A DNA stretch of 63,737 nt, filler included, from Collodictyon triciliatum (taxonomy: Eukaryota): assembly GCA_043381765.1 (NCBI GenBank). It is 7 parts of 7 records of this genome, joined end to end, with 100 filler letters (N's around TTAATTAATTAA, not from the genome) between each part and the next. Parts side by side here need not be neighbours in the genome. Positions count along the whole stretch, not along the records: positions 1 to 12,892 come from JBHJMP010000699.1; 6 more parts are not named here. One strand, written 5' to 3'. Every line of letters begins with the position of its first letter. Position 1 is the first letter of the stretch. Position numbers and translations under genes: made by a program. This document shows positions 156-17,800 of this stretch, piece by piece. The notes under the pieces are model-generated. The model was not told the DNA's origin and searched no databases. It worked only from the letters and a program-made list of their open reading frames with translations.

Positions 156-492
156 AAAAAACAAAAAGGGACTCTAAAACAAACTTCGCATGCCGAGGAC
201 AAGTAGCTTTGAGAGTGTATTGTTTTCTTTCCATGCCTGACGGGTTCATGAGAGGTTGAATGCTGAGGGAGCGTAATCCGCTCTAGCCCGGCTCTAAGTG
301 GGCCCGCTAGCAAAGTAGAGCCAAATGAAAAAAACATGGCAAAAGGGATGGAAAACAACAGAGTACGCCATACAAGTAACATTCCGATACTGAACGTTGA
401 CATTCACTAAACCTCTGGACAACAAAATAAACTCTTATCACGCAAGATCACGCGAGGAAAAGAGAAAAGAAAAGAGAAAGCGAAGGGAGAGG

Positions 493-3014
493 ATGTCGTG
501 GATTCGCTACCAATGCGTAGACGCACCGGAATCCCGAGGCGGACACAGCGCAGTTGTTCTCGGCCGCAAACATGTTGTCATCTTTGGAGGAAACGCGGAT
601 CCACGAAGGCAAACACAGGCCGCCGACGCAAACGGAGCCCGACGAGGCTGCATTCTTCGTGACGCGAGGGTTCTTGACTCAGGTTTCTTAGATGGCCAGA
701 TCTCTTTGCTTTTCATCACAAAAGCCTATGATTGTGCTTCCATACCGCTGTTATTCCATTCTATACGTCGCGGCTTTGGCTGGATCGCCACCAGACGCAG
801 TCCCGTTATTATTTTATGCCTCGGCCTCGCCCTCGGCCTTATGAACTCATACCTTACAAAGAGACAGTATGCATTGAGCAGCAGAGGAAAGGATCGTGTG
901 TGTTTAAGTTGCTTTGCATACCTCAATCTGCTCAATGCCACTTCACTCGCAGCAACTATGACCTGGGCAAGCCTCGAAGCGGTCGGCCAAATACCGACGG
1001 CTCGCTATGCGCATGCTGCATCGCCCCTTGGAGATGCGATGATGGTTATACACGGAGGTCATGACGGAGAAAAATGGTTAGATGACCTGGTTGTCCTGGA
1101 AATAGGTTTAGCTGACATCATGCAATACCCACTTCTTTAACTTATACAATCTACATAATTATCGTTTATCTAGTTCAGTTCATGACATTTTATAATGGAA
1201 TATATGAACAGGCGTGTCTGGGACACCAAGATGGATTTATCCTGTCGCCAGTGGACAGCCTCCCGGCGCGCGCCACGGACATACTTTGACTGAAATTGGG
1301 TCAAAGATTCTGCTTTTTGGGGGTTATTGCAATGAAATGTACTTCAACGACGTATTTATTTTGGAATTTAATGCAGGTACACGTCTTTATGGTTTTCTTC
1401 TTCTTCTGCTATCTTTGTTCATTTACTCTTTTTATTACCTAGATATGGATAGTCTATTTAGCCTTGAATATTCTTTATCGTCTTCGAAATGAAAACAGAA
1501 TCCAAAAAATAGTCATTTGTATTTATTTTTTTTACAGTTATTCAATTTTATACTCTTCACTGCCAAAGATAGAGCTCGATGGACAAAGTGCATCACAACT
1601 GGAACTCTACCTGCCCCGCGCGCATACCACACAGCTACACTTATCGATCGCAGATATGTAATCGTGTACGGCGGAAGGACATCAACCGGGCAGTACCTCC
1701 AGGTTTGTAATCATGCCAAAATGCTTCTGATTAATCATAAAAAATTGTTTACGTATTAGAAATGCAGCTAATCAAGGAGTAGTATAATATTGTCAAGTAA
1801 AACACACCAATGAACATAATTCAAGAATTGAATACCAACCAACGTATTTCATTTTACAGGATAGTGCTGTTCTTGATATAACGACTATGAACTGGAATTA
1901 CCCAAAGTTCGAGAACACGCCACCATCTGCCAGAGCACATCACAGCGCAACTCTTTGCGATACGAAGCATGCTTAAAACACTTTATCATCAATTATATTC
2001 ATCGTCCAAAACAATCCAGTCGCCTCGATAAGTATAAGTGCCTTTACACTTATCCTTTTTTTTTTTTTAGGCTTCTCATCATTGGAGGGCAGAGCAGTCC
2101 GACAAATTTCTTGAGTGATATACACATGCTTCATAATGGTAAATATCATTAATACTATCTTAAATTTTATTCAAAAGGAGATTTACCCCCAAAACGATAT
2201 CCTACAGGTAAGTGGCACGAGGTCACATTTTCTGGAATACCGCTTTCACCTCGTTCTCGTCATACCTCATGTCTGGTCAAAGGAAATAATCTGATAATAT
2301 TTGGGGGCTATGATGGAACTTCTTGGATGAATGATGTATTCGTCGTCGATATGGGTAATCAATCTGCGACCTAATTTTCGTATGAAAATGATTTGCAAAA
2401 AGAAAAGTACCCAGAATTTCATAAATTACCTCATACCATAAATTATAACCCCATTTTCATGTGTCGCTTAGATTACGCCCAACAAAAGACAGAGCTGAGT
2501 GCACTAAAAAGCAGAATCGAAATGCTTGAAGGGAAAAATCTCAGCATATTAACTTTGCAAGAGGTTCAAATTGATTTTCTCATTGATTTTTCTGTGTTTT
2601 ATACCCATATAACCTAAAAACTTGTAGATAAATCAATAAAAGAAAGGGAATTAAATTATATTAGAATGTTGAATGCATTTTTTTCCAAATAGTGTAATAA
2701 TAATAATGACATGACTACTCACAATAGATTGAGGAGTTGGAGGAGACATATCTTCGGTGTATAAAGCTGATTGGCAAGGCAAAAGTGGGATGTCTTTAAA
2801 AAAATATATATCGTGCAATTTTGCCAATAATTAAAAGTCAATATGCTTCTGAGGATAATACAAAACGAATAATGTAATCTAGTATGAAGCCATCCGCAGA
2901 GATGTGGAGCAGAAGGGAATCCCAACGATACCGCATTCACCCTCTGTAAAGACATCGTCAAGTTCATCCCCTCTCCTGTTGAGGCCATTGGGAGGGCAGT
3001 CGGACATGAAATAA
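493..3014 (+). CDS. Kelch-repeat beta-propeller protein with C-terminal coiled coil; multi-exon
   Basis: Spliced exons give repeated Kelch motifs: SRGGHSAVVLGRKHVVIFGG, TARYAHAASPLGDAMMVIHGG, GARHGHTLTEIGSKILLFGG, APRAYHTATLIDRRYVIVYGG, SARAHHSATLCDTKLLIIGG, SPRSRHTSCLVKGNNLIIFGG. Introns include 683-952 (GT-AG) and 1967-2070 (GC-AG). Stop TAA at 3012-3014. Confidence 0.88.
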
Positions 3015-3314: not shown

Positions 3315-3993
3315 CGTGCAATTTAAATTTTCTTTTATTGTCTGGGGCGTCGTGGCTATCGTGATCAACCGGAGCCGCGTCGCAGATTATTTTCCAGTCG
3401 AAAGAACTGGCGATCAAAAGATAAGCAGTAGGCACGCCGATTCTCCCTAGCCAAGCGTTAAGTTGCGCAGAATCAAAATGAGCCTGGATCAAACCTCCAG
3501 CAATCAAACGCATTCTGCCCCAACCGATGTGTTCCATCTTGGCCTCCTCTGGTCTGCTCTTTGATCTTTTCGTCTTCTCTCAGCCTTGCACCAGAAACCC
3601 CCGCATTTACCTACTTGGCTTATCGTTACTGGCTTTCGATTGCAGTCGTTCTGTATGTTTTTTTTTTTTAGCTCAGGCAGTGTGCGATCTGAGTTGCTTG
3701 CTTCGGGCCCAAATCCTCCAACAAACTGTTCCTGTGTCACAATGCTCTGTACCACACACGAAATCGCTACAGAACTTTCATTATGAGGCACTCACAAACA
3801 AAGTCACAGCCTCCTGATGAAAACAAGCCATATCTTCTGAATATGCGGGGCAACCTGTTCCTTGGTTTAAAACAGACCTATTTATGCCGCTGTTTTTTTT
3901 CTTTTTCCTTTGCTGCGTACAGAAAAAAAAAGAGAGAAAAGAGAAAAGGTAAAGGCCTCGTGCGCCCCTTCCAAGCCGCTTCACTCGTTCGAA

Positions 3994-4121
3994 ATGTCCA
4001 CCTCGCAAATCCTCGGCAGCCGCGTTTCTGTCATCACCCGCACAAACATTCGCTATGAAGGTGTAATCCAAAGCATCGACCAAGTAACACGAAGTTTAAC
4101 CCTTCAAGACGGTACTATTCA

Positions 4122-4165
<44 letters not shown>

Positions 4166-7049
4166 CTTTTTTTTTTTTTTTTTGTTTTTTTTTTAGTTTA
4201 AATTNNNNNNNNNNNNNNNNNNNNNNNNNNNNNNNNNNNNNNNNNNNNNNNNNNNNNNNNNNNNNNNNNNNNNNNNNNNNNNNNNNNNNNNNNNNNNNNN
4301 NNNNCATAGCAGTCATTCCCAACCCCCCCCCAACAAAAAAAAAAATTTATCCCTAAAAAAAGCAAATTTCCCCTCTTTTTTTTTTTTTTTTTTTTACTTA
4401 TTTCTAGTTTTAGTTTCTCACTTTTAGGATTTGGGCTTTTGTTCAGCTGAAAATTCAGATTTCTATGGCCCTTTCTGTCAGACTGTGCTTCATATTTTCT
4501 ATTTCATTTTTTTCTCGAAAGCACACATATTAAGCCTTTTTTTTTTTTTTTTTTTGCCGCAACACAGTTCGCATCCATGGAACCGAAAATCGTCAACCGC
4601 CCAGTGGCCAAGTCGTCCCACCTTCTGCAGAAGTCTTTGACAGCATCGAATTCAACTCGGGCGATCTCAGCCACTTGGAGATCATTGAGGCCGTCCCTCA
4701 AGCACCGGTCAATACTTTCCCAGCCTCGGTCCCCACAACTCCCGCCGCTACTCAGCCCAATCCCGTGGCTGACCCGCCGGTTTGTCCACCAGTCTCTCAG
4801 CTCTGAAAAGAAGTTTTTTTTCATATCCCCCTTACTGGGTTGGAGTTTCAGTTTTTTTAAAGCATTTAATTCAATTACATTTTTTTCTCATACACTTATT
4901 CCATATTAGCTGCCCAAGCCGACAGAACCGATGGTGCAGCAGCCTCCAATGATGCCGAATCCGCAAGCACCTATGCCAGGTTATGGAATGCCGTACGGAA
5001 ATCCAATGGCCTATGGATACGGTCCGATGGGCTATCCCGGCCCCATGCAAGAAGTAATGCAGAATCACTACTTTCAATCTTATCTGCAATATCTTCATCG
5101 GCAAAAGGCCACTCCCGGGGGATATCCTTATCCTCCGATGAATCCCTTCCAGGTGAGTCACAGTCCATATAGCTTATCTAAAAAAAAAAAAAAGAAAGGA
5201 AATTGAACCCTGACATAATATTTTTATTGAACTTCAACGATATGCCTCGCATTCGACCCAATGGAACACCTGATCAATCTCTTCCGCTCATCGAACAGAA
5301 TCCTGCCTTTGAAAATTATATGGCGATGTACTCTCAACAACCAAGTATGAATCTAAATGGTATGTTCTTTCTAATTGTATATCTTTATGGTTTACCGTAT
5401 CCGCAAATGGTGCCTTCCTGTATTTGGTATGTATTCAATCAGGATATGTTTTACATCAGAATATGATACGGCCAACACCACTGAGGCAAAGCCTCCTGCA
5501 GCCACATCTGCAGCTCCAGCGTTCAATATGCCAGTTCCCGCACCTCCCCCATCCCTCTCACAGCCAGAAATTCCGACCTCTGCCATACCAACATCGGGAA
5601 ACCAGCCGTCAGCCTCTCCGTTTTCCAACCCGTTCTCCAATCCATTCTCCAAAGTAGAGGAAAGCCTTTCAGCTCTCTCCATTGCGGAGACCACTTCTCG
5701 AACAATTGAGCCTACCCAAGTTCCATCGCTCTCAACAAGTACTGTTCTGCAAACCGCACCCATCGCCACGCCCGCTGCTCTCCTTACTGCATCCTCCAAA
5801 GTAACTGCATCCTCCAACGCTCCCACTCAGAAACCTGCTGTGCAGCCCACTGTAGAAGAGAAACCCGAACCATCACCAGCTCCAATAACGGCTTGGAACA
5901 AACCAACTGCGAGTGTAATAACTACCAATGCAGCTCAGAGCGCCACCGAGACGTCGACGAAAGCAGAGCCGTTGCAGAAGGAGGCACCAAGGGCAAGCAA
6001 TCGCTCGGTTTTTGACCCTCCCAACAAACAACAACGCAACTATTCTTCCTTCGCAGGTCGCTCAGGTTTTACTTTGTTGTATAATTATCACTTATTTTGT
6101 ACGTTTGTTTATTTTATTCCTATCTTCATCCAGACCGACGTCATGAGGGAGGCTCGCATCACCATTACCACAATCACCATGGTCATCGCAGCGGCTCATC
6201 TAATTATAACTCATCTGGATACAATTCTCTACCAGTCGCGCGGGAATCTACGCCCTTGGGTGACTTTGACTACGTGGAGTCCACAGCATCATTCGATAAG
6301 GAGAAATTCTTTGAGGACATCAAAGTATAGCTATCTAACTTCTGGGGTTCTGCATCTGATTACAATATCTTCATTTAAGTAGCAGAGCAGAGAAAAAATA
6401 AAGTTGATATCAAACCACAAGTTGAGTTGTACTTACCGTGATTCTATTCCTTTTTTCTCATAAGGCCAAAGACGAAGAATCGAGCTTCACCGTCAGCACA
6501 GCTCCGTCTACTAATGTTTACCAAAAGTCGTCGTTCTTTGACAACCTTTCGGGCTCACAGAATCGTCCGGACGAGAACCGCAACCGCTTCGACCAGCGCC
6601 GTATGGACGTGGAAACCTTTGGGCAACAAAACTACAGCCATCGCGGTGGATATCGTGGAGGCCGCGGTGGGTATGGAGGATATAATCGTGGACGAGGCGG
6701 TTACAGCCATGGAGGAGGCCGCAGCTCCACCCAGACAGGCAGCTCAGAAGGATTTGGCGGGTCGTCCCAGCAACAACAATATGGCTCATCCTCGGGTCAA
6801 AGACAGAACGGCCTCGTGCCTCGCGGAAGGGCCAATGACCAAGGATTCCGTGGAGGACACAGGGTATATCATCGCACTGAAGTGCCTAATCCATGCTTTG
6901 TCTGCCTTCTGTTGAAAAATCTTTCACAAGCAACATTTTCATTTAACATAAGAAAGCAAATATGGCTGAATTGCTTATCTCTGTTGGCCGTCACTTAACG
7001 TAATCACAAAAATGTACCTTTTTTTTTTCAGAGATTCACTACGGATTAG
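3994..7049 (+). CDS. LSM14: LSM14/Scd6/RAP55 P-body translational repressor; multi-exon
   Basis: N-terminal LSm14 domain (ILGSRVSVITRTNIRYEGVIQSID...VRIHGTENR...VFDSIEFNSGDLSHLEI), then a Pro/Ser/Thr linker, FDF-like DFDYVESTASFDK, FFD box YQKSSFFDNLS, TFG box RRMDVETFG and RGG tail. The last short exon 7032-7049 is inferred; the unspliced stop is at 6998. Confidence 0.93.
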
Positions 7050-8072
7050 GTCAATTGTGTGGAGTGATTTGTTGTCCTTCATCGCCCGAGTCTTCTTGTC
7101 CCTTGTCATGTGTCTCGCTCGTTTCTCGTTTCATCTCCCTTTTGTCGCTTCCGTCGTTTTCCTCTCACTCCCTCCACCTCACACACCTCTGTGATGGGAT
7201 TTGTGATTGAAAGGTCATGTAACCGAAACGTAGCGCGCGTGTTTGGGCACAAAGGAGACACCAAAGTTCTAGGATTTCTCCATGTGATCCACTCGATATA
7301 ATTCATCCTTTTGTCGGCCGATGTAGATTAAGCACAATAATCCGCCAATAAAATATGCAACCGCGAAATGTCCTCTTGCTTCTGCAGTCTGCGGGTGAGT
7401 TTGTTGGCTCCTCCGTCGGTGCTAAAAAAAAAAAAGCAGTTAGAAACACGTGTATTCGTCATCATTTCTCATCGCACCAGACAAAACCACTCTCACTTCA
7501 AGATGAATTTCGCTTGGTGGTGAGATATCTCATCATCATTGCCTTAAAGCAGATTATGAGTCAGCTGTACCGCTCATCCGCAATACTGGACACGCAGCAG
7601 ACACATCTTTTTTTTTTTTTTCTTGTGACACCCGCCATGGAGACGGATTGGTAATGGCCTTGTGCCTTTGTTTTATTGAGCCCATGGAAATCGATACCAC
7701 TTGCGATGTGCGCGCACAAACGACGGCGGATGCGTATAGTGTCCAGGCAGGTGGGGTTGTGTGCTTCTGAGCTCCGAGGCCTGCTCAATATGCATTTTTG
7801 CTCATCAATCTGTTTCTTCGGGAGTCTCTGGTGTTTCCACCTCGATACCGAGAGAAGGAAGGGATAAAACCATAATCATATATCCATCGAGTCACTTGGA
7901 TTTGGCAGGTTTGTGAGCACTATTGGGTGCATACCGAAGCCATAGTAACAGCGCCATCCCCCTCTGCGCGGCAAGAATATCATATATTTTAAAGAGGGTG
8001 AGCGCCCGATTTGGCTGAACAAATCATATCACAGCCGCAGATGCCCCTGTGGCGCACTGGCTTTAATGACCG

Positions 8073-8230
<158 letters not shown>

Positions 8231-8320
8231 ATGTTGTCTTTATCTTATATTTTTTTATTCTTAGTTCTTTTGGTCATTGCTTCATCAGAAAAAAAGAAAA
8301 TGAAGAAAATGAAAGAAAGG

Positions 8321-11300
8321 TTATTGGGGGTTGGCAGAGAAGGCCGAGACCGACTTTTGCGAAAGACTCGTGGCATAGAAAGTGTCGTCGAGTCCGAAGC
8401 AGGCGCCCAGGCAGCCGTCCAAGAGGATGCGGTGCTGAACTTCTCCCTGGTAGTTGTAGAAAACAATTGTCCCGGTCTTATTCTCGCAAACACCAAAGAC
8501 ACCCGGATAGGCGCGGAATATATGCGACCAGGCCTCGACACTTGTTGGCACTTCCAGCTTGATTTCTTTTTCGAAAATACCGTCCTTTGAAAAGATGCGG
8601 ACTCTGTCAGAGCCGGCACAAAGAACTAGGAGCTTGTCCTCTTCATTAACGCAGACGCCATTGACAAGCGAGCTGATGGAGCCGCCACTTTCGCTCGCGC
8701 TTCCAATGACAGAGACAAATGCGCCCTTCTTGTCGAACTTCTGGACCCTTTGGTTCCCAGAGTCGGCCACGTATAGGTTTCCTGTACTATCAAAAGCAAC
8801 CGAGTATGGGCGATGGAGCTGGCCGTTCTCTTTACCCTTCTTTCCGCCGATGGTCTCGACAAGTGTGAGCTGGCCGGTGAAGAGCTTCACAGAGTGGCCT
8901 TCGCAGTCTGCAACCGCAATAAGACCGTCGTTGGAGATAGCGATTCCTCTTGGCCCGTGAAGAGCCTTTGGGATGATGAGTCCGGTGTGGTGGGAGGAAA
9001 TATGGCTGAGGTCTTTTCTAAAGATATGGACTTTTTGCGAGTCTTCATCCGTCACATAGATGTTACCGTTCTGTGGATGCACGCAAACCGCCCACGGACA
9101 CTCGATTCGAGGATTGCCAGTCGAAGAGTCAATCATGGCGTAGGAATTTGTGTTGATGCTTGCAGGCGGGGTGGTGATCGAGTGAAGCGACTCTGCTTCC
9201 GTCATGACCTCTTCTGTCACCGCTCCTTCTGCTTCCCCAGCAGTACTCAGGCCAAACATGAATGTCTCGTTCAGCTTCTTGAGGTCGTCCAGGATGAATC
9301 GCTGGTCTCTCGAGACGATGCTAAGTGGGGCAATCTCAATTGGTGTATCGTATTTGGAATAAAGGACTTGGTTGGCGAAGCGCAGTGCGTTGCCCATCTG
9401 AATCAGGGAGCGCTCGCCTTCGGGCTTTTCAATCAGCTTTTGCAGGGTTTGCTTGGCGATGCGGATTCGGTGCATTTGATCATGTAATTTTTTTCTGAAA
9501 ACACTGCAGCGGCTCAATTACAGACTGGTTCAAGGCATCGAGCTAGTTCGTTTTAAATTTTAGCTATATGCATTTTAATTATTTTTTTTCCTCCAAAAAA
9601 CAAGAACAAACGGAGATATGTAAGATGTGAATATTATACATTTCTCTTCGTTTCTTTCTTAAATTGTTCGATTTGTGCCTCGATGTCTTTGACAAATTCC
9701 TCGAGCTCCATATTTTTCCGCTCGTGTTGGTCAACGGCCTGAATTTTTTTTTTCGCGATTTTATAAATTAAATTTAGAAGCTCGCTTTGATTATTTTTGT
9801 AGGTAATCTTGGTATTGCTATTATTTAATATGTATTTATTGTTAACATTTCATTATTTTAATTCTTTTATAAATAACTATATAAAAACGAATTTTTGTAT
9901 TCACCTCCTTTATATTTCGCTGAATGTATTCAATATCTGGCGCAAGTATGTACTCTGCTGTGCAAAGTTCTTGAAATTTAGATGCGATCAATTTGTCGGT
10001 AGTGAAACCCTGCTGCTTCAGAGAAATCCTTAGCTTTTGATGACCTTCGTCTTCGAAAACACACTCAACGCATTTAAAAGGAGATTCTGCGCAAGAAGGG
10101 CAGAAGAATGCTATTTCACTTTGGTGAATCAAACAGTTATCTGACTTCTTTTGATTCAACAATGCTCCAAACTCTAATGGCCTATCAATATATAAAAATT
10201 AAAATGTAAAACTAGCACAATTTAAGTACAGCTTGATAATAGGCAACCAAAAAATGAATAGGAAGAGAGGTAAAAAAATAAAATAAAATAAAGAAGCCAA
10301 ATTCTTACTTGATCGTGTGATCCTCTAATGATTCTAAATGTAGTTCGCCGTGAGCCTCACAGTAAATCCCCTTTTCACCACAATTTTCGCAATAATGGGT
10401 AGCGTCCTTCTGGCATTTTCTTCCTTTGCATTCCGGGACTTTGGCGATTTCTTCATTCAAGGTTATTTCTAGCCCTGTGTTTGCCCCCGCCATAGGAGAA
10501 GGGTCGTATTCGAATGGTTTTAGCTCATGGGCTGTATTCTCATCTACATAAGCAGATTCAAGACACACTGGACATCGAAGCGGAGGTCCTTCTTTCGAAA
10601 ATGTGGTGGCTATCTTGATACAAGCGGAGCAAAAAATATGCTGACAGGGCAGAAAACACGGATTAATGTATTGACTATTGCACATGAAGCATAGTCTTCC
10701 ATCGAGACAGGCGTCGATCTGGACTCCAATATCGCAATCTTCTGACTCTCTCTAAAAGATTAAAAGAAAAAGGCCAAACAGTCGCATGGAATCTTTTTAT
10801 ATAATATTTTCCTTTATTCGACTCAAAGTAGAGATGGCTTATTAAAATAAAAATTACTGCGGCGTTGCCAGTGTCTATTTGAAGAGTTTGATATTGTTCT
10901 TTCTGGCGGGTGGGTTCTAGTTTCATGTCTAACTTACGCCTTCTCTTTTCTTGGTCTATGAGATATTATAAACGATTTTAGAGAAAATAGTAATGAGAAA
11001 AGAATAAGGAAGAAAATGGACTAAAAACGCTGATAAGATTCACCTCTAATGGACACATTTCTACAGTATCCATTCCCAAGATCATAAAAATATATCTTTT
11101 CAACGCAAAAGTTGCCTTTGTAATGGAACACTTCAAATGTGCTGTGTTTTAAATAGTTGAATTCAGTGTCTTTCTTTTGCAAGCATAGTCCAGGTGAAGA
11201 ATGATGGATGATATTAATTATGGAATTGGCTTACTTCTCAGCAGTGGAGAGTTTAACTTGAAACACTTCTCCTTCTGCATATGGCTCATGTCCTATTTTC

Positions 11301-11586
11301 GTTTTATCTATTCGCTGATTATCAGTTTCTGGGGCAGGTATAAAATTATCCATGTATGTAATAATTTAAAACCTGGATGGAGAGTCCTTTTTGCCTGAGC
11401 GTAATGAACCTGTCATTCAAACATTTGTTGATATCTCGAGTATAAGCAAATGTATAAATCACATTAAAATGCCCAAGGAATCATGATAACGTCACCTACC
11501 TGTTTTTCATACATTATTATCTCTTGGGCCTCTTTTGCCTTACGAGATATGGCTATGGCGCTAACCTAGAATAAATGGGCCCCATT

Positions 11587-11655
<69 letters not shown>

Positions 11656-12381
11656 GTTGTAATAGTACTAGTAATAGTAATAATAATATGAACGTGAACA
11701 AGAACAAGAATAATAAGAAATATAAAGGAACGCGTCACTCACTGGCTCGTAGAGCTGCAGGGCGCGCAAATGTTTATGATCACCGCCAGTATTGCTCCAG
11801 CAGGGAAGATTAGTGATGCCACACGGCGCCCTCTTTATCCACTGACCGCAGTTATTGTTTATCCAGAGCCATTGCAGATTCGTGAGTGCGGTGATTTGTG
11901 ACGGCAACTCTGCCATCTATGGGCGCATCACTGTTAGTCGCGTTTTCTGCGGCTATGTCAAAGGACAGAATTGCCTTACCGGATTGACATTGACCCAAAG
12001 CACTGCAAGGCCAGTCAGGCACGATATTTGTGGCAGTAGCGACGAGAGCTGGTTGTTGGAAACGCCGAGGAAGGTGAGCGCCGCCAAGTATGATATCTCC
12101 CGAGGCAACGACGAGAGAAGATTGTTGCTTAAGCCAAGCTCCTGAAGACCCGTCAAGCACGACACATGCGATGTCAACGAGGACAATGCGTTGTTGTACA
12201 GCCTCAGCCGAACCAGGCGACTCAGCAGAAAGACTCCGCACGGAACAGACGCCAGTGGGACGAATTGGAGATCCAAGGACGTTCGGCTCCGCACTGTGGC
12301 AGCGTCGCGATCTCTGGTTATTGTCCGCAGTTCTTCAACAAGTGTGGCCTCGTCAGCCATAGCAGCAGAGGCCGGACGCAT
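8321..12381 (-). CDS. LRR - linker - RING(C3HC4) - B-box - B-box - coiled coil - NHL-repeat protein (LRR-TRIM-NHL E3 ligase-like); one apparent frameshift near 9488-9494
   Basis: GT-AG exons join in frame: 12381-11980, 11916-11743, 11565-11500, 11409-11373, 11328-11235, 11141-11044, 10955-~10857, then the RING/B-box exons. Motifs: LRR (LRLYNNALSSL, LGLSNNLLSSLP); RING CFMC..CQHIFCSAC..CPVC; B-boxes CKGRKC..YCENC..YCEAH..H and CLIH..FFCPSC..KCVEC..H; NHL (GPRGIAISNDGLIAVAD, GQLHRPYSVAFDSTGNLYVADSGNQRVQKF). The domains are clear; the single-gene join is inferred. Confidence 0.75.
11584..11690. repeat. intronic (AAT)/(AATGAT)n microsatellite
   Basis: Direct tandem repeat inside intron 11566-11742. 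Confidence 0.9.
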
Positions 12382-12892
12382 GAGGACTCTGAGAGGCGGC
12401 TGCGCGGTTAGTTTATCGGCTGTGTGGGAGGCCAGAGAACGGATTGATCATCCATGACAACCCGTTCCCAACACATGTCACTTTGCCCCAGACAGAGGAG
12501 AATCAGACGTAAGCGCTTACTCATATTCATCGCACTGAGAGAGACAATATTGAGAGGGGCAGTAAATAGATACGATAAAATAAAAGCGTAGAAAACAAGG
12601 AAACGTCTCTTTTGCTGATAAATAAACACACTGGGAGAAAAAGCACATTCTCCGGAAAATAACAGTGTTGAACTGGCGTTCTTTCCTTTCTTCTTCCTAA
12701 ATCACCACACTCTGTTCAAAAGTTGTTTAAACCGATCAAGTAGCTAACACTACCTAATCAAAGAGAGAGAGAGGCGATCAAAATACTCTTGCTGATCTGC
12801 GACCCTGACCGCTCCTGAAGAAAAACCCTCTCAAGAGCTCGACTACCAGGTTTTCAACCAAGAACAATATATCGGAAAGTATCGTGTCCTTA

Positions 12893-12992
12893 NNNNNNNN
12901 NNNNNNNNNNNNNNNNNNNNNNNNNNNNNNNNNNNNTTAATTAATTAANNNNNNNNNNNNNNNNNNNNNNNNNNNNNNNNNNNNNNNNNNNN
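12893..12992. other. artificial scaffold spacer 44N-TTAATTAATTAA-44N
   Basis: 100-nt block with a stop-in-all-frames linker, identical at six places in the window. Confidence 0.97.
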
Positions 12993-13185: not shown

Positions 13186-13247
13186 AGCCACCCACCATTC
13201 CAAAAAAATAAGGAAAAAAAAGGAAGCAGTTTTAAGTTTCTGGAGGC

Positions 13248-14034
13248 ATGAATCCCATTCCCAAGGGCTACGACCACGAGAAAAAGGAAGACGCTCTTGC
13301 ACCAGCACAAAAAGCCACGCACGACCTGATCACCCAGACCCAGGCGCACCTGCTTGGCCTGATCGACCTGATGCACAATTCTATTGGCTACCTTCAATAC
13401 GCAGCAACCGAGCGCGACCTATCCTGGCAAAGTGAAGCAGACGCTGGAACCACAACAAAGGCAGAACCGTCCGAAGGCTTTACCGACCAAGCCATAGAAT
13501 CCAAGCATGAAGAGCATTCTGTGCCTGCCGCACCAAATCCCACCCCAGCCGACTTTGCACATGATCTTGTAACTGTTCCACTTTGTATCTCTACAAGGCT
13601 GACTTTTGTGTAGGATGACATTCATTTGTTACTCAAAGAGCGTACCACTATTTATAGGTGCAGCGGTTTAAAGTGCTAGATATGCAATTCAATCAGCTCC
13701 CTGAGATGATTCCCTCTGAAGATGAGCATGTTGCAGTTCTACAGGAGCAAGAGGCTCACTTTCAGCAGCCAGTCCAAGAACTTACACATCAAGTTCAAAC
13801 AATAGGTCAGCACTCTACCCCAGTTTATGCATATCTGTTGCCGAAAATAGGTCATATGCGACTTATTACATATATAAACATATATATTTATATGAAGCCA
13901 TTTTTAATATCTAACGACTTGGTATAGAAGAACTCCTATGCAAAGTCCAAAAAACTATCGGATATATTCATGTACAACTCCTCGCTACGGATGGGATAAT
14001 CGTGACTGGTGATGTTGATTTACCAACAGATTGA
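13248..14034 (+). CDS. MED21: Mediator complex subunit 21 (Srb7); 3 exons
   Basis: DLITQTQAHLLGLIDLMHNSIGYLQ resembles MED21 DRLTQLQDAV...FCNAIGVLQ. Also FAHDLVQRFKVLDMQFNQLP (cf. DIDVLIDSLP) and EELLCKVQKTIGYI. Introns 13569-13657 and 13806-13927; TGA at 14032-14034. Confidence 0.85.
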
Positions 14035-14896
14035 TGCATGCACAGTCGTGATATCTTTGATTTAAGAGGATGTAATAAAAAAAAACCTACACAGATGATA
14101 ATCAAGTCTGATGGAGCATATATATTTTCCAATTTCCTATGATACAAATTTACAGTATTGATGTCAAGCACGGTTAAGCTAAAAACAAGGTGAAGAGAAT
14201 AGATTTCCTATTCACGAAAGCTTCNNNNNNNNNNNNNNNNNNNNNNNNNNNNNNNNNNNNNNNNNNNNNNNNNNNNNNNNNNNNNNNNNNNNNNNNNNNN
14301 NNNNNNNNNNNNNNNNNNNNNNNNNNNNNNNNNNNNNNNNNNNNNNNNNNNNNNNNNNNNNNNNNNNNNNNNNNNNNNNNNNNNNNNNNNNNNNNNNNNN
14401 NNNNNNNNNNNNNNNNNNNNNNNNNNNNNNNNNNNNNNNNNNNNNNNNNNNNNNNNNNNNNNNNNNNNNNNNNNNNNNNNNNNNNNNNNNNNNNNNNNNN
14501 NNNNNNNNNNNNNNNNNNNNNNNNNNNNNNNNNNNNNNNNNNNNNNNNNNNNNNNNNNNNNNNNNNNNNNNNNNNNNNNNNNNNNNNNNNNNNNNNNNNN
14601 NNNNNNNNNNNNNNNNNNNNNNNNNNNNNNNNNNNNNNNNNNNNNNNNNNNNNNNNNNNNNNNNNNNNNNNNNNNNNNNNNNNNNNNNNNNNNNNNNNNN
14701 NNNNNNNNNNNNNNNNNNNNNNNNNNNNNNNNNNNNNNNNNNNNNNNNNNNNNNNNNNNNNNNNNNNNNNNNNNNNNNNNNNNNNNNNNNNNNNNNNNNN
14801 NNNNNNNNNNNNNNNNNNNNNNNNNNNNNNNNNNNNNNNNNNNNNNNNNNNNNNNNNNNNNNNNNNNNNNNNNNNNNNNNNNNNNNNNNNNNNNNN

Positions 14897-17800
14897 CTCA
14901 CCCCCTCTCACGGGAATCACGCAACGCCAGCCACACAGCCCGACGACCCGCCGATCGGAATGCACGGGCAGCCCAGCACGCACGGGAGTCACGCAGCCGC
15001 CCCCGCAAAGGCCGCCTCCCCGCCGCCCCCGCCCGCTGCGACGCAGGGCACCCCCCTCCCGCCGACGGCACAGCGGACAACGCCCTTCAACGCGGGCTAC
15101 GCCGCCCCCTTCGCCCAGCACACGCACGCGCACGAGACGCCCTTCGCCCGCGGGGGGCCCTTCCGCCTGCCGCCGCACGACGAGACGCACGGGCCCGATC
15201 TGCTTGCCGACCCGCCGCACCTGACCGCCCTCGCCCTCGCCCACGACCCCCACCCCCACCCCCATGTGCACGCGCACGCGCACGCGCACGCACTCCCCCA
15301 CCCCTTCGGCCCGGCCTTTGCGCACCAACCCGCTCATCCGTTCCACCCCTACCACGTGCCGCAGCTGCACCCGCCCCACATGCTCGCCGCCCATCCGCCC
15401 CACATTCCGGGGTCGCATCAGCCCCACATTCCCGGGCCACATCAGCCCCACATTCCCGGGTCGCATCAGCCCCACGAGGCCCTGGAGCACTCGGAGGAGA
15501 GCGACTTCCTGCGCCACCCCACATCCACGCAGCACCCGCCCATGCTCACCGCGGCGCTCGACTACTTTGCCGACGAGGCCACGCATGGCCACAGCCACAG
15601 CCACAGCCACAGCCACAACCACACGCTCGCGCACACCATCTCGCAGATGTCCATGCAAGGCAGTTCGCACGCGCACGCGCACGCGCACGCGCACGCACCC
15701 GCCCGGTCGCAGAAGACCGCCCCCGCCCGGCCGCAGCACCCCCCGCTGGCACCCCTGCAGCCCGTGCAGCAGACCTACGCCGCCCGGCCCTTCTTCCAGC
15801 CCCTGCAGCCCGGCCACAGCTCCACCAGCCACTCCCTCGACGAGCCCGACCATCCCGAGCCACCGGCCACAGCTCGCCACAGCATCCACCACGCCCAGCC
15901 CCAGCTCCACGCCTTCCAGCCCGAGCACAATGTGGTCAGCCTCAACCTTAACCTTAACCACAGCCACAGCCAAAACCACAGCCACAGCCACACAGCCTAT
16001 TCCGCCCAGCACAGCGTCCCTCCGCATCCGGCAGCCGACCAGTACGTCCGGCACGTGTCTTCTGCTCGGTATGCGCAGCCGTCCTACCGTCCCCAACAAT
16101 CGCAGCAGATACTCTATCCGCAGCCGCAGCCACAGCCACAGCCACAGTCGCAGCACAAGCCACAACCACTACAACCACAGCCACAACAATCGCAGCCACA
16201 ACCCGTTAACTGGATTGCCCTGAATCCCGTCCCTGAAATGCGGCAGCCGTTGCCCGAATCGCTCCCGACTCCGCCCCGTGATGACGAGTTGGACACTGTC
16301 GCTCGTGTATGTTCTTAGTTTCTTCATTTGACTAGAAGTCTCGAAAGAAGAAAGAAATGAAAAAAAAAAAAGAGATAAAGAAAAAGAAAAGAAAACGAAA
16401 AGAAAGATGAAATCATAATGCGTTTCCTTTTTCCTCTTCTTTTACTTTCTCTCCTTGTTCACTTTCGTCATCTTTCTTGTAACTTTCCCTCTCCTCGTCA
16501 AAGAAAGATATGTACTTCAAATATCTACTCCAAAAAGGGAGAAACATAGAATACACTCACATATACACATATACACATATACACATATACACATATACAC
16601 ATATACACATATACACATATACACATATACACATATACACATATACACATATACACATATACACATATACACATATACACATATACACATATACACATAT
16701 ACACATATACACATATTCNNNNNNNNNNNNNNNNNNNNNNNNNNNNNNNNNNNNNNNNNNNNNNNNNNNNNNNNNNNNNNNNNNNNNNNNNNNNNNNNNN
16801 NNNNNNNNNNNNNNNNNNCTTTTTCCTTTTTCCTTTTTCCTTTTTCCTTTTTCCTTTTTCCTTTTTCCTTTTTCCTTTTTCCTTTTTCCTTTTTCCTTTT
16901 TCCTTTTTCCTTTTTTCCTTTTTTCCTTTTTCCTTTTTCCTTATTACTTTTTTTCCTTTTTTTCCTTATTCCGTTTTCCTTTTTCTATTTCTTGCTGTCT
17001 TTCTCTTGCATATTAGACCAACCAATCGACGAGAAGGGATATCCAGCGATATCAAAGCAAGAGCCCGTAATCGATGGTATCCTCCGGCAAAAAAATCACA
17101 AAGCTGTATGGAAAGAAATGAGCGATAAGATCCAGGTGAACTGAAATCCCATCATTTATATTTTACTTAGTTACTTTGTCACGATTGAACAGTTGATTAT
17201 CCATCAGTAATCTATATTTCTTTTTTTTTTTTCCAATCAGCGAATTAATATTTAACATACTATATCTAAACGTACATATACAGCGCTTTTTTTTTAATGT
17301 TGTAAATACTCATATGTATATACCATTTTACAATAACTCATCTTTCCACCCCAATAGGAAATTAAGAAAAGCATCGACATCGCTGTTTTCAACGAAATAA
17401 AGAAATTTGTGATACGTTTCTCAAACAAAGGTTACTTGGAAGTCGGCCACGAAATTCCAACCGCCGCACTTTTTGCAGGAATCAACGTCCAAGACCACCA
17501 ATCAACAGTTTCAAAGCTATCTGATTTTTTAAAGACCGAATGTGGAGCAATCACAGCTATTTTGCGATCGGTAACACACAATCCTTACTTATTTGTTTTT
17601 AATAAAGGAAAATAGATGTGGAAGTGTAAATAAACCTGCTGATTTTGAAGAAAAATTAGGTAAGTAAAAAATAAAAAATACCTATGTATGTAACTCATCA
17701 GAAAAACTGCCCCAATGTCTCTCTCACGGTTCGTTCCCTGATTGAATCGGTCATGCGACGCGAGTTTATCAGCGATGATTACGTATACTTTTGACAAACA

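Follow-up and report, generated by a model that had tools for sequence, protein, structure and literature searches.

A Collodictyon triciliatum gene joining leucine-rich repeats to a TRIM-NHL-type putative E3 ubiquitin ligase

Does a locus in the genome of Collodictyon triciliatum encode, in one protein, leucine-rich repeats (LRRs) followed by the body of a TRIM-NHL protein, or do neighbouring or decayed genes only give that appearance? The locus was analysed in a window of 63,737 nucleotides, filler included, which is the whole stretch of DNA under study. The analysis shows that 12381..8321 on the minus strand holds one protein-coding gene, expressed and divided into 11 exons, with a product of ~995 aa that combines LRRs with the body of a putative TRIM-NHL-type E3 ligase; we regard our explanation as a whole, the mechanism proposed below included, as probable. 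Six LRRs and their cap stand at the N-terminus of the product; a linker of ~125 aa leads from these to a RING, which is followed by a pair of divergent zinc modules resembling B-boxes, then by a coiled coil and lastly by an NHL propeller with six blades. The exons, and one irregularity in the last of them, are as follows.

11980..12381, minus strand: exon 1, with the ATG at 12381; aa 1-134, comprising an N-terminal segment, LRRs 1-4 and the first half of LRR 5.
11743..11916, minus strand: exon 2; aa 135-192, comprising the rest of LRR 5, LRR 6 and the LRR C-terminal cap.
11500..11565, minus strand: exon 3, 66 nt; first linker exon, with joint 11743/11565 (cut +2) and GT and AG flanks.
11373..11409, minus strand: exon 4, 37 nt; linker, with joint 11373/11307 in an X1 contig and an AG acceptor, the 5' junction being supported indirectly.
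11235..11307, minus strand: exon 5, 73 nt; linker, with joints 11373/11307 and 11235/11141.
11044..11141, minus strand: exon 6, 98 nt; linker, with joints 11235/11141 and 11044/10955.
10858..10955, minus strand: exon 7, 98 nt; last linker exon (...DQEKRRRKLDMKLEP...NAA), with joints 11044/10955 and 10858/10751.
10309..10751, minus strand: exon 8; aa 317-464, comprising a C3HC4 RING (zinc ligands aa 337-379) and a B-box1-like module (C/H ligands aa 424-461).
9905..10181, minus strand: exon 9; aa 465-556, holding a B-box2-like module (C480-H511) followed by the first stretch of the coiled coil.
9640..9738, minus strand: exon 10; aa 557-589, coiled coil, with joints 9905/9738 and 9640/9542.
8321..9542, minus strand: exon 11; end of the coiled coil, L2 linker and NHL propeller (~aa 721-995), with a TAA stop at 8321-8323.
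9488..9494, minus strand: A-run that the assembly gives as 7 A; the transcript contig has one fewer, and the surplus A puts the coiled coil and the NHL in different frames as assembled.

An in-frame stop lies upstream of the ATG, at 12448-12450. The original prediction had started from four separate open reading frames, and Pfam places them where they had been drawn:

11953-12447, minus strand: LRR open reading frame, LRR_8 at E=3.8e-10.
10305-10751, minus strand: RING open reading frame, zf-C3HC4 at E=1.7e-5 (25 bits vs a cutoff of 21).
9842-10198, minus strand: B-box open reading frame, zf-B_box at only E=0.011 (16.3 bits, under the cutoff of 24.1).
8321-9517, minus strand: NHL open reading frame, NHL at E=1e-24.

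RNA-derived contigs of a public run (X1, X2 and X3) were mapped to the window. Nine of the ten introns appear directly as GT-AG joints in spliced contigs, with indirect support for the remaining one. Eight joints come from X1 contigs, all of them CT..AC on the plus strand and hence GT..AG on the strand of the gene; X3 record 14, aligned without mismatch, supplies the ninth, 10309/10181. Joint 11500/11409, the tenth, does not figure in the joint list and is only consistent with the contigs: X1 record 7 carries 24 unplaced letters past the 66-nt exon 3, and a second contig begins 4 letters ahead of exon 4. Exon 1 is covered without mismatch by X1 record 7 (12311-11980) and by X2 record 11 (12124-12354). 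The former also carries joints 11980/11916 and 11743/11565, which tie exons 1 and 2, with the LRRs, to exon 3 of the linker, and X1 record 6 carries 11044/10955 and 10858/10751 and continues through the RING exon, tying exons 6, 7 and 8. Other contigs connect exons 4-5 and 5-6, and X1 record 5 holds joints 9905/9738 and 9640/9542 together. The listed contigs are short (293-726 nt), and none of the records reaches from the LRR to the NHL.

These joints bear on the five small linker exons by which the LRR and the RING had been bridged. Four of the five (11565-11500, 11409-11373, 11141-11044 and 10955-10858) were placed exactly, while the third runs over 11307-11235 rather than 11328-11235. The proposed 44-nt intron (11329-11372), named as a weak point in the original prediction, accordingly falls away, since the transcript joint 11307/11373 gives an intron of 65 nt. 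This 21-nt shift of the exon 5 boundary preserves the frame. The consistency of the phases held, with entering phases of 0,0,0,0,1,2,1,0 as far as the RING exon, and the reading of ...DQEKRRRKLDMKLEP...NAA|RESEDC into the RING was recovered from the spliced exons.

The same layout is conserved in the transcriptome (EukProt) of Diphylleia rotans, where Pfam detects LRR, RING and NHL in two Trinity genes. These are DN445 (EP00002_P022733, here P0295; 918 aa, RING at 285) and DN9790 (EP00002_P040832/P040833, here P0293/P0251; RING at 199 in P0293, which also has a sub-threshold zf-B_box at E=0.0013 and 19.3 bits). The exons of the window are colinear with the D. rotans genes, and one BLASTP HSP against P0295 takes in the spliced model from its LRR through the whole of its NHL (59-988 vs 25-914, E=1e-60, ~23% identity). 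The architecture had been put forward as one not recognised from elsewhere, and it does appear to be rare: among the 22 long matches scanned from 52 relatives of the RING exon, only the D. rotans proteins have LRR, RING and NHL, and the same layout was found in no other. The comparison with animal or metagenome TRIM-NHL proteins comprised 4 sequences at ~25% identity. Trinity also gives D. rotans isoforms, P0244 without the LRR and P0294 without the NHL.

The LRR domain (LRR_8 at 3.8e-10 and LRR_4 at 5e-10 in Pfam) is of the 'LxxLxLxxNxLxxLPxxI' kind. Five repeats start exactly 23 residues apart, at aa 56, 79, 102, 125 and 148, as in the cytosolic 'typical/Ras-group' LRRs of 23-24 residues, and the first intron cuts LRR 5 in exact 23-residue register. 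The LRR exon finds its best matches among LRR proteins of the ROCO, SHOC2 and LRCH types. The cap motif AP.GI..LPCWSNT...L..L.LYEP, including its LPCWSNT core, is common to P0295 and, more loosely, to P0293. Selection on the LRR fold is evident from the conserved cap motif and the repeat register. The ~125-aa linker is poorly conserved and unrelated in sequence between the window and D. rotans. The maximal 19-residue Kyte-Doolittle mean is 1.6, within the LRR, and since the protein has no hydrophobic segment, it is probably cytosolic.

All eight zinc ligands of the C3HC4 RING are in place (C21, C24, C36, H38, C41, C44, C60 and C63 in exon 8 numbering), in columns nearly invariant in 22 aligned sequences, and the RING precedes the B-boxes as in TRIM/RBCC proteins. 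It begins at ~aa 337, after the LRR and linker, rather than near the N-terminus as in that class. Its best solved relative is TRIM2, both in sequence (E=3e-6) and in fold (Foldseek E=2.3e-4; VIA Z 7.9, rmsd 3.1, 71 aligned), and it is of the TRIM2 type, with flanking helices. In the AF2 model, pLDDT is ~78 for the RING and ~82 for the B-box1-like module. The residue past the last RING Cys, which we take to be the 'linchpin' position, is Leu here, Arg in TRIM2 and P0295, and His in P0293; with Leu in place of Arg, RING activity may be weak or reliant on another residue.

The two B-boxes are divergent and lie under the Pfam thresholds. The B-box1-like pattern C-x4-C-x7-C-x2-C-x6-C-x2-H-x3-H-x6-H is invariant in 5 family sequences. 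Its Pfam matches are sub-threshold (ANCHR-like_BBOX E=0.093, zf-B_box E=0.49), and it matches the B-box1 region of a Lingula TRIM2-like protein (P0254) by BLASTP at E=4e-4. The B-box2-like pattern C-x2-H-x7-C-x2-C-x6-C-x2-C-x6-H aligns with B-box2 of P0295 and P0293; its pairwise BLASTP match to P0254 (E=0.016) lands on B-box1 of that protein. No solved relative of exon 9 was found by sequence, and the fold searches were filled by RING matches, so that the B-box part was not reached. An alignment at E=1.35e-13 pairs model residues 337-517 with the RING, B-box1 and B-box2 of P0254.

The C-terminal six-bladed NHL is akin to those of TRIM2, TRIM3, TRIM32 and TRIM71, members of the TRIM-NHL subfamily (Marin subfamily C). 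Over the 275-aa domain, its best solved relatives are TRIM71 (2.6e-35), Thin (2.3e-33), TRIM2 (5.6e-33) and TRIM3 (2.8e-32), and a profile-profile comparison with animal TRIM-NHLs gives a probability of 99.6% over 167 columns. The domain has a pI of 6.2 and is not basic overall, so RNA binding gains no support. Fold and dimer predictions were made on P0295, the D. rotans homologue 23% identical to the window protein. Its predicted fold has pLDDT of 84-90 for the LRR, under 50 for the linker (128-274) and 82-92 for the RING, followed by a single helix (473-577), a return helix (581-613) and then ~24 strands. A two-copy model of P0295 425-630 reached an ipSAE of 0.61 vs 0.00 for the best control, which shows likeness only, because TRIM coiled-coil dimers have been solved and the pass may reflect structures already known to the predictor. 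Among solved homodimers, 21 of 30 from microbes and 17 of 29 from eukaryotes attained the ipSAE mark, as against 0 of 23 and 0 of 30 single chains, respectively. At least 97% of contacts agreed between the P0295 runs, with partner pLDDT of at least 83, and residue i contacts ~1053-i, which is antiparallel. By analogy with this model, the window protein may form an antiparallel dimer.

The reading of the locus as one gene must be weighed against two others. A small LRR gene could stand beside a separate TRIM-NHL gene, with the linker exons being UTRs or read-through and the fusion an artefact of contig assembly. The lack of a single listed contig from LRR to NHL would fit this, as would the D. 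rotans isoforms, P0244 beginning after the LRR and P0294 ending without the NHL. Mean depth in bins 11081-11527 is also above what the spliced contigs alone account for, and unspliced or other forms may thus exist there. Against these points, contigs join LRR exons 1-2 to exon 3, exons 4 to 5, 5 to 6, and 6 through 8; the phases at the seven junctions leave a single frame free of stops; the same fusion lies within one ORF in two D. rotans genes; and the entire spliced model is a single HSP against P0295. We therefore regard adjacent genes as very unlikely indeed, and the one-gene claim of the original prediction stands on the spliced contigs and on the frame open through all exons. The A-run raises the second question, and the break that it causes in the last exon is absent from that earlier account. 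With 7 A the frame is broken and terminates at ...CFQKKIT*, while with 6 A there is an uninterrupted ORF of 995 codons. The genomic copy could be a pseudogene or null allele, in which the 7-A run is real, the protein is truncated past the coiled coil with loss of the NHL, and the in-frame transcript comes from another allele or strain. Indeed, the sole X1 contig across the run (depth 4.71) is the only one with the shorter form; it omits one letter at 9488, and the tool warns that the contig may err. On the other hand, the NHL frame is open for 388 codons downstream of the break, which is unexpected in a decayed copy, and it remains strongly NHL-like (at the Pfam and TRIM71 E-values above) and colinear with P0295. 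Many N runs interrupt the assembly, a gapped draft, and homopolymer length errors are frequent in such assemblies; RNA contigs elsewhere show 0-3 differences per piece against the window (records 5-7). A decayed copy is hence quite improbable, if less so than a pair of genes.

For the intact, single gene that we prefer, the likeliest mechanism is that of a RING E3 ubiquitin ligase built on the animal TRIM-NHL plan. The coiled coil would dimerise in antiparallel fashion, so that both ends carry a RING along with its tethered LRR; the NHL propellers would hold a substrate, protein or RNA, and the flexibly tethered LRR would offer a second binding surface beside the RING. In the mechanism that we favour, binding of the LRR to a multivalent target would cluster dimers, so that RINGs pair and E2~Ub is activated; alternatively, the LRR may mask the RING. 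A related reading accepts the gene and sees in the LRR a regulatory lid or a localisation tag in place of a second target-recognition module, or takes an LRR-less isoform with an internal start as the main product. The LRR is short (six repeats) and on the side of the RING, the linker is unconserved and predicted to be disordered in P0295, and D. rotans has the isoform P0244 without the LRR, all of which would suit such a role, as would the bacterial IpaH/SspH ligases, whose LRR both binds substrate and autoinhibits. The selection shown by the cap motif and repeat register speaks for an LRR fold but is silent on its partner. We judge this reading unlikely on the whole, although it is the most credible of the alternatives, and retain the LRR as a putative recognition module. 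The paired recognition by LRR and NHL in the original prediction, and its candidate sensor role in immunity, xenophagy or RNA control, likewise stay putative.

Known systems share parts of this plan. Animal TRIM-NHL proteins (TRIM2, TRIM3, TRIM71/LIN-41, TRIM32/Thin, Brat and Mei-P26), which we take to be class VII, have the order RING, B-box1, B-box2, coiled coil and six-bladed NHL, which the window protein shares with B-box-like modules in place of the B-boxes; the RING of the window protein is closest to TRIM2 and its NHL to TRIM71, Thin, TRIM2 and TRIM3, and a long helix with a return helix and an antiparallel dimer are predicted for the homologue P0295. In the animal proteins the RING is near the N-terminus, whereas ~316 residues of LRR and linker precede it here; the window B-boxes are too divergent for the Pfam thresholds, there is no filamin domain, and the nearest full-length relatives come from the non-animal D. 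rotans. P0295 and P0293/P0251, which are Trinity ORFs, share the full layout over their whole length, but their linkers lack sequence kinship to that of the window protein, and P0295 is only ~23% identical. LRSAM1, which ubiquitinates cytosolic bacteria and consists of an LRR, coiled coils, a SAM and a C-terminal RING, is likewise a cytosolic protein in which a RING E3 module goes with an N-terminal LRR of the 23-24-residue 'Ras-group/ROCO' kind. Unlike the window protein, it has its RING at the C-terminus and neither B-box nor NHL, and no kinship beyond generic LRR and RING was found in the LRR-exon, RING-exon or solved-structure searches. In the bacterial IpaH/SspH/SlrP LRR-NEL ligases, the LRR serves both substrate choice and autoinhibition. 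The coupling of an LRR to a ubiquitin ligase module is a shared logic, by analogy and without homology, as these are secreted effectors whose NEL catalytic domain is unrelated to the RING.

The evolutionary setting gives these features their interest. Sections 9, 14 and 15 of PMC2533329 describe the tripartite motif as exclusive to metazoans, and Table 1 of PMC3503706 gives the TRIM-NHL subfamily (C) an animal origin, with only TRIM37 wider. In PMC3160408, no protein with both RING and NHL is recorded outside animals, and a Dictyostelium review (PMC5758549) names a TRIM37 orthologue as the sole TRIM identified in D. discoideum. The present locus has a complete, expressed body of RING, B-box-like modules, coiled coil and NHL, the only full-length relatives found for it belong to the CRuMs protist D. 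rotans, and an N-terminal LRR is set on that body in all three genes, that of the window and the two of D. rotans. At its most speculative, and with low expectation that it is right in full, this would mean that TRIM-NHL ligases are not an animal invention and that deep-branching phagotrophic protists (Diphylleia and the freshwater organism of the window) hold an LRR-bearing lineage of them. The protein would be a cell-autonomous sensor-ligase, its LRR on a foreign or polymeric target and its RING activated by clustering, as an early version of the 'recognise and ubiquitinate' principle at work in TRIM5, TRIM21 and LRSAM1. If the organisms are truly non-animal, one could test whether TRIM-NHL ligases arose there by descent, by transfer from prey or by convergence, and the locus would be a natural E3 with binding modules at either end of a TRIM scaffold.

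The window is eukaryotic in character, with short GT-AG introns, standard stop codons and numerous microsatellites and assembly gaps. The original prediction held that one gene fuses N-terminal LRRs to RING, B-box and NHL modules, and the domains it had noticed are real: Pfam placed them on separate minus-strand open frames between 12447 and 8321, the B-box below threshold.

Pfam matches between 12447 and 8321
Minus-strand ORF, LRR_8, E=3.8e-10
Minus-strand ORF, C3HC4 RING (zf-C3HC4), 25 bits against a cutoff of 21
Minus-strand ORF, B-box, sub-threshold, E=0.011
Minus-strand ORF, NHL repeats, E=1e-24

Sampled words of 8250-12700 were sought in public RNA runs, and 37% were present in one run, X1, with small shares in three metatranscriptome runs. 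Eight joints were found in X1 contigs, each skipping exactly a proposed intron and all reading CT..AC on the plus strand, i.e., GT..AG on the gene strand. A ninth was found in X3, a run labelled freshwater metatranscriptome. Because they skip introns, these contigs come from spliced RNA. Mismatch-free copies of the window sequence also occur in runs that carry the label freshwater metatranscriptome.

Splice joints in placed RNA contigs
11980/11916, gene on minus strand, X1 contig
11743/11565, gene on minus strand, X1 contig
11373/11307, gene on minus strand, X1 contig
11235/11141, gene on minus strand, X1 contig
11044/10955, gene on minus strand, X1 contig
10858/10751, gene on minus strand, X1 contig
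9905/9738, gene on minus strand, X1 contig
9640/9542, gene on minus strand, X1 contig
10309/10181, gene on minus strand, X3 record 14, 0 mismatches

X1 record 7 (598 nt, 0 mismatches) spans the two LRR exons and continues into linker exon 3, record 6 (726 nt) carries linker exons 6 and 7 into the RING exon and further, and record 5 runs from the B-box2 exon through exon 10 to the last exon. None of the placed contigs held the whole gene, and none covered sequence upstream of 12421. Contig placement skipped 11578-11726 and 10265-10301 as repeats; long (ATT/ATC)n-type microsatellites (11578-11726) occupy intron 2, and directly downstream of the gene there is a trinucleotide repeat (8063-8240). 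The tenth junction, 11500/11409, was absent from the joints listed for X1-X4 contigs. Past the 66-nt exon 3, 24 letters remain in X1 record 7, and the contig with the 11373/11307 joint starts four letters ahead of exon 4 with ACAG, which is the intron end and also the end of exon 3; we infer that these leftover letters agree with the spliced path. Four of the five linker exons originally proposed were exact, and the third was corrected by the 11373/11307 joint to 11307-11235. The 44-nt intron that had been doubted is thereby 65 nt long, the 21-nt difference being frame-neutral.

A frame break in the last exon had been overlooked. As assembled, this exon reaches a stop after ...CFQKK, and the NHL frame is +1. 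In the sole X1 contig there (depth 4.71), one letter is missing at 9488, within a run of seven A's (9488-9494), and with six A's the spliced ORF comprises 995 codons and no stop. We read the 7-A run as a homopolymer error of the draft assembly. The competing reading is a frameshifted (null) allele, which we judge improbable. With the homopolymer reading, the encoded protein is laid out as follows.

Layout of the encoded protein
aa 1-192, six LRRs and a cap, five repeats spaced exactly 23 residues
aa 193-316, basic linker from five small exons
aa 337-379, RING
aa 424-461, Cys/His module in the B-box1 place
aa 480-511, Cys/His module in the B-box2 place
about aa 515-650, helical region
about aa 721-995, NHL propeller

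The position of intron 1, within LRR repeat 5, matches the repeat register. No hydrophobic segment was found in the ~995-aa model, so the protein is probably cytosolic. AlphaFold2 gave two confident modules for exon 8, the RING (pLDDT ~78) and a second (~82), with a floppy stretch between them. Further copies of the gene were absent from the window, where tblastn with the model matched the gene itself only, and no RNA genes turned up when the window was scanned with Rfam and for tRNAs.

The RING is nearest human TRIM2 by sequence (E=3e-6) and by fold (Foldseek E=2.3e-4; VIA Z 7.9, rmsd 3.1, 71 residues), although VIA Z values below 8 are common and the fold match by itself is modest. At what we take to be the linchpin position, immediately following the final RING cysteine, this RING has Leu where TRIM2 has Arg, a reason for caution about ligase activity. 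The NHL domain is nearest TRIM71 (2.6e-35), then Thin, TRIM2 and TRIM3, and matched an animal TRIM-NHL profile with 99.6% probability. Profile-profile comparison of animal TRIM-NHLs with A2, a family alignment, returned the NHL region alone and left the B-boxes outside the alignment, while fold-search lists for exon 8 were filled by the RING. Model residues 337-517 aligned to the RING, B-box1 and B-box2 of a Lingula TRIM2-like protein (E=1.35e-13). The two zinc modules are termed B-box-like here, their matches being weak when taken alone.

An exhaustive HMMER search of 1.84 billion representatives with the RING/B-box1 exon (E<=1e-3) matched only 52 proteins, among them a 126-aa fragment at 98% identity and a 76-aa fragment at 55%, the rest being remote TRIM-like proteins. 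Thirty of at most 367 aa were too short to accommodate the full layout and were left out of the Pfam scan. Among the 22 scanned, one (P0251) combined LRR, RING and NHL, and five had RING and NHL without LRR. In the Diphylleia rotans EukProt transcriptome, P0251 and P0293 come from the same Trinity gene, and P0244, P0294 and P0295 from a second. The longest isoform of the latter, P0295 (918 aa), carries LRR_8 (7.8e-15), a RING at 285-327 and NHL by Pfam. The window exons are colinear with both D. rotans genes, the spliced model aligned to P0295 in a single HSP (59-988 to 25-914, E=1e-60, 23% identity), and the LRR cap motif AP.GI..LPCWSNT...L..L.(I/L)Y.P is common to both proteins. Recurrence of the same fusion in three genes from at least two organisms argues strongly that it is not an artefact of assembly or read-through. 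The second D. rotans gene also yields an LRR-less form of 689 aa that starts inside the linker (P0244) and one of 663 aa in which LRR and RING were matched and NHL was not (P0294), besides the full 918 aa; the three might reflect alternative start and end sites, or else incomplete assembly.

P0295 was modeled with AlphaFold2 from a 15-row alignment (mean pLDDT 61). The LRR was confident (pLDDT 84-90), as was the RING (82-92), and the linker (128-274) was of low confidence (<50). Two small beta-beta-alpha modules follow, with one 105-residue helix and a return helix, and about 24 strands. A pair of 425-630 chains was predicted to form an antiparallel dimer (score 0.61 against 0.00 for the best control), with contact agreement of at least 97% between runs and pLDDT of at least 83. 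Among microbial proteins, 21 of 30 solved homodimers and none of 23 single chains passed the mark used; for eukaryotes the counts were 17 of 29 and 0 of 30, respectively. Since TRIM coiled-coil dimers have already been solved, the predictor may simply be reproducing an arrangement already known; the model would indicate likeness of the D. rotans protein to TRIM dimers and is not proof of binding.

Word-index searches were swamped by repeat proteins. Among longer proteins, the NHL exon gave at least 120 multi-repeat NHL proteins with no RING or LRR among the matches listed, those with source names being bacterial or archaeal, and the LRR exon gave at least 120 generic LRR proteins with no RING, B-box or NHL among the matches listed. 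The at least 120 matches listed for A2 included only P0244, a RING, B-box and NHL protein without LRR (P0352) and a TRIM-SPRY protein (P0377). In metagenome contigs, 65 pattern matches to A5, a narrower alignment, and 148 to the NHL domain yielded no confirmed case; an earlier alignment had been too divergent. Within these limited searches, the full layout appears elsewhere in D. rotans alone. Whole P0295 retrieved from the ESM Atlas three metagenome clusters (63, 102 and 91 members, ~555-589 aa) with LRR_4/LRR_8 and zf-B_box, but the scores, only 0.76-0.78, make them leads rather than evidence; proteins with LRR and B-box may form a wider family in the environment. The LRR-less P0295 175-640 did not return these clusters; it returned RING and B-box clusters from animals and Ciliophora (0.90-0.91). 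In the Ciliophora clusters only a few members bear a label, and these are ciliates.

Eleven neighboring ORFs gave Pfam matches to Kelch, LSM14 and, weakly, Med21 only.

Neighboring open reading frames
394-1140, plus strand, Kelch repeats, PF24681, E=1.5e-14
3991-4170, plus strand, LSM14/Scd6-like Sm domain, PF12701, E=1.2e-8
6426-6998, plus strand, RGG/Gly-Tyr-rich, downstream of the Sm domain
13236-13613, plus strand, weak Med21-like, E=0.0016, below cutoff; upstream of and on the strand opposite to the LRR-TRIM-NHL gene
14183-16318, plus strand, His/Pro/Gln-rich low-complexity, 711 codons including an N gap; locally GC-richer with strong C skew (GC skew -0.33)

The Sm domain and RGG ORF probably form one intron-containing LSM14-type gene converging on the 3' end of the LRR-TRIM-NHL gene. 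The N gap at ~12890-12990, filler between two records that need not be genome neighbors, falls in the upstream region shared with the Med21-like ORF, so the LRR-TRIM-NHL promoter is incomplete in the assembly. Over 8303-9477, many contigs matched the NHL exon with no more than 90-99% identity. Of the 48 contigs placed from X1, 21 were 90-95% alike and 12 were 95-99%, with similar pieces in X2-X4. They diverge from the window at ~9477 and ~8303, with other letters beyond, and so are either close paralogues of the NHL part or sequences of sibling species, their upstream parts being different.

The gene is expressed and encodes LRR, linker, RING, two B-box-like modules, coiled coil and NHL in a conserved layout. 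By analogy with the TRIM family, the RING would activate E2~Ub, an antiparallel dimer would put the RINGs at its ends, and the NHL domain would be a substrate- or RNA-binding module. More speculatively, the LRR, on a flexible, unconserved linker beside each RING, might bind a second, possibly multivalent target and so favor clustering and RING pairing; equally speculatively, it might instead mask the RING.

No description of LRR combined with RING, B-box and NHL was found in the literature searched, and passages of four papers restrict both the tripartite motif and the TRIM-NHL subfamily to animals (PMC2533329, PMC3503706, PMC3160408, PMC5758549). Among LRR-less relatives with a named source, animal TRIM-NHLs are nearest (Lingula TRIM2-like and TRIM71-like, Ephydatia, Acanthaster), and the amoebozoan Endostelium zonatum has a RING and B-box protein (P0253, EukProt). 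RBCC-like modules may be commoner outside animals than older surveys say.
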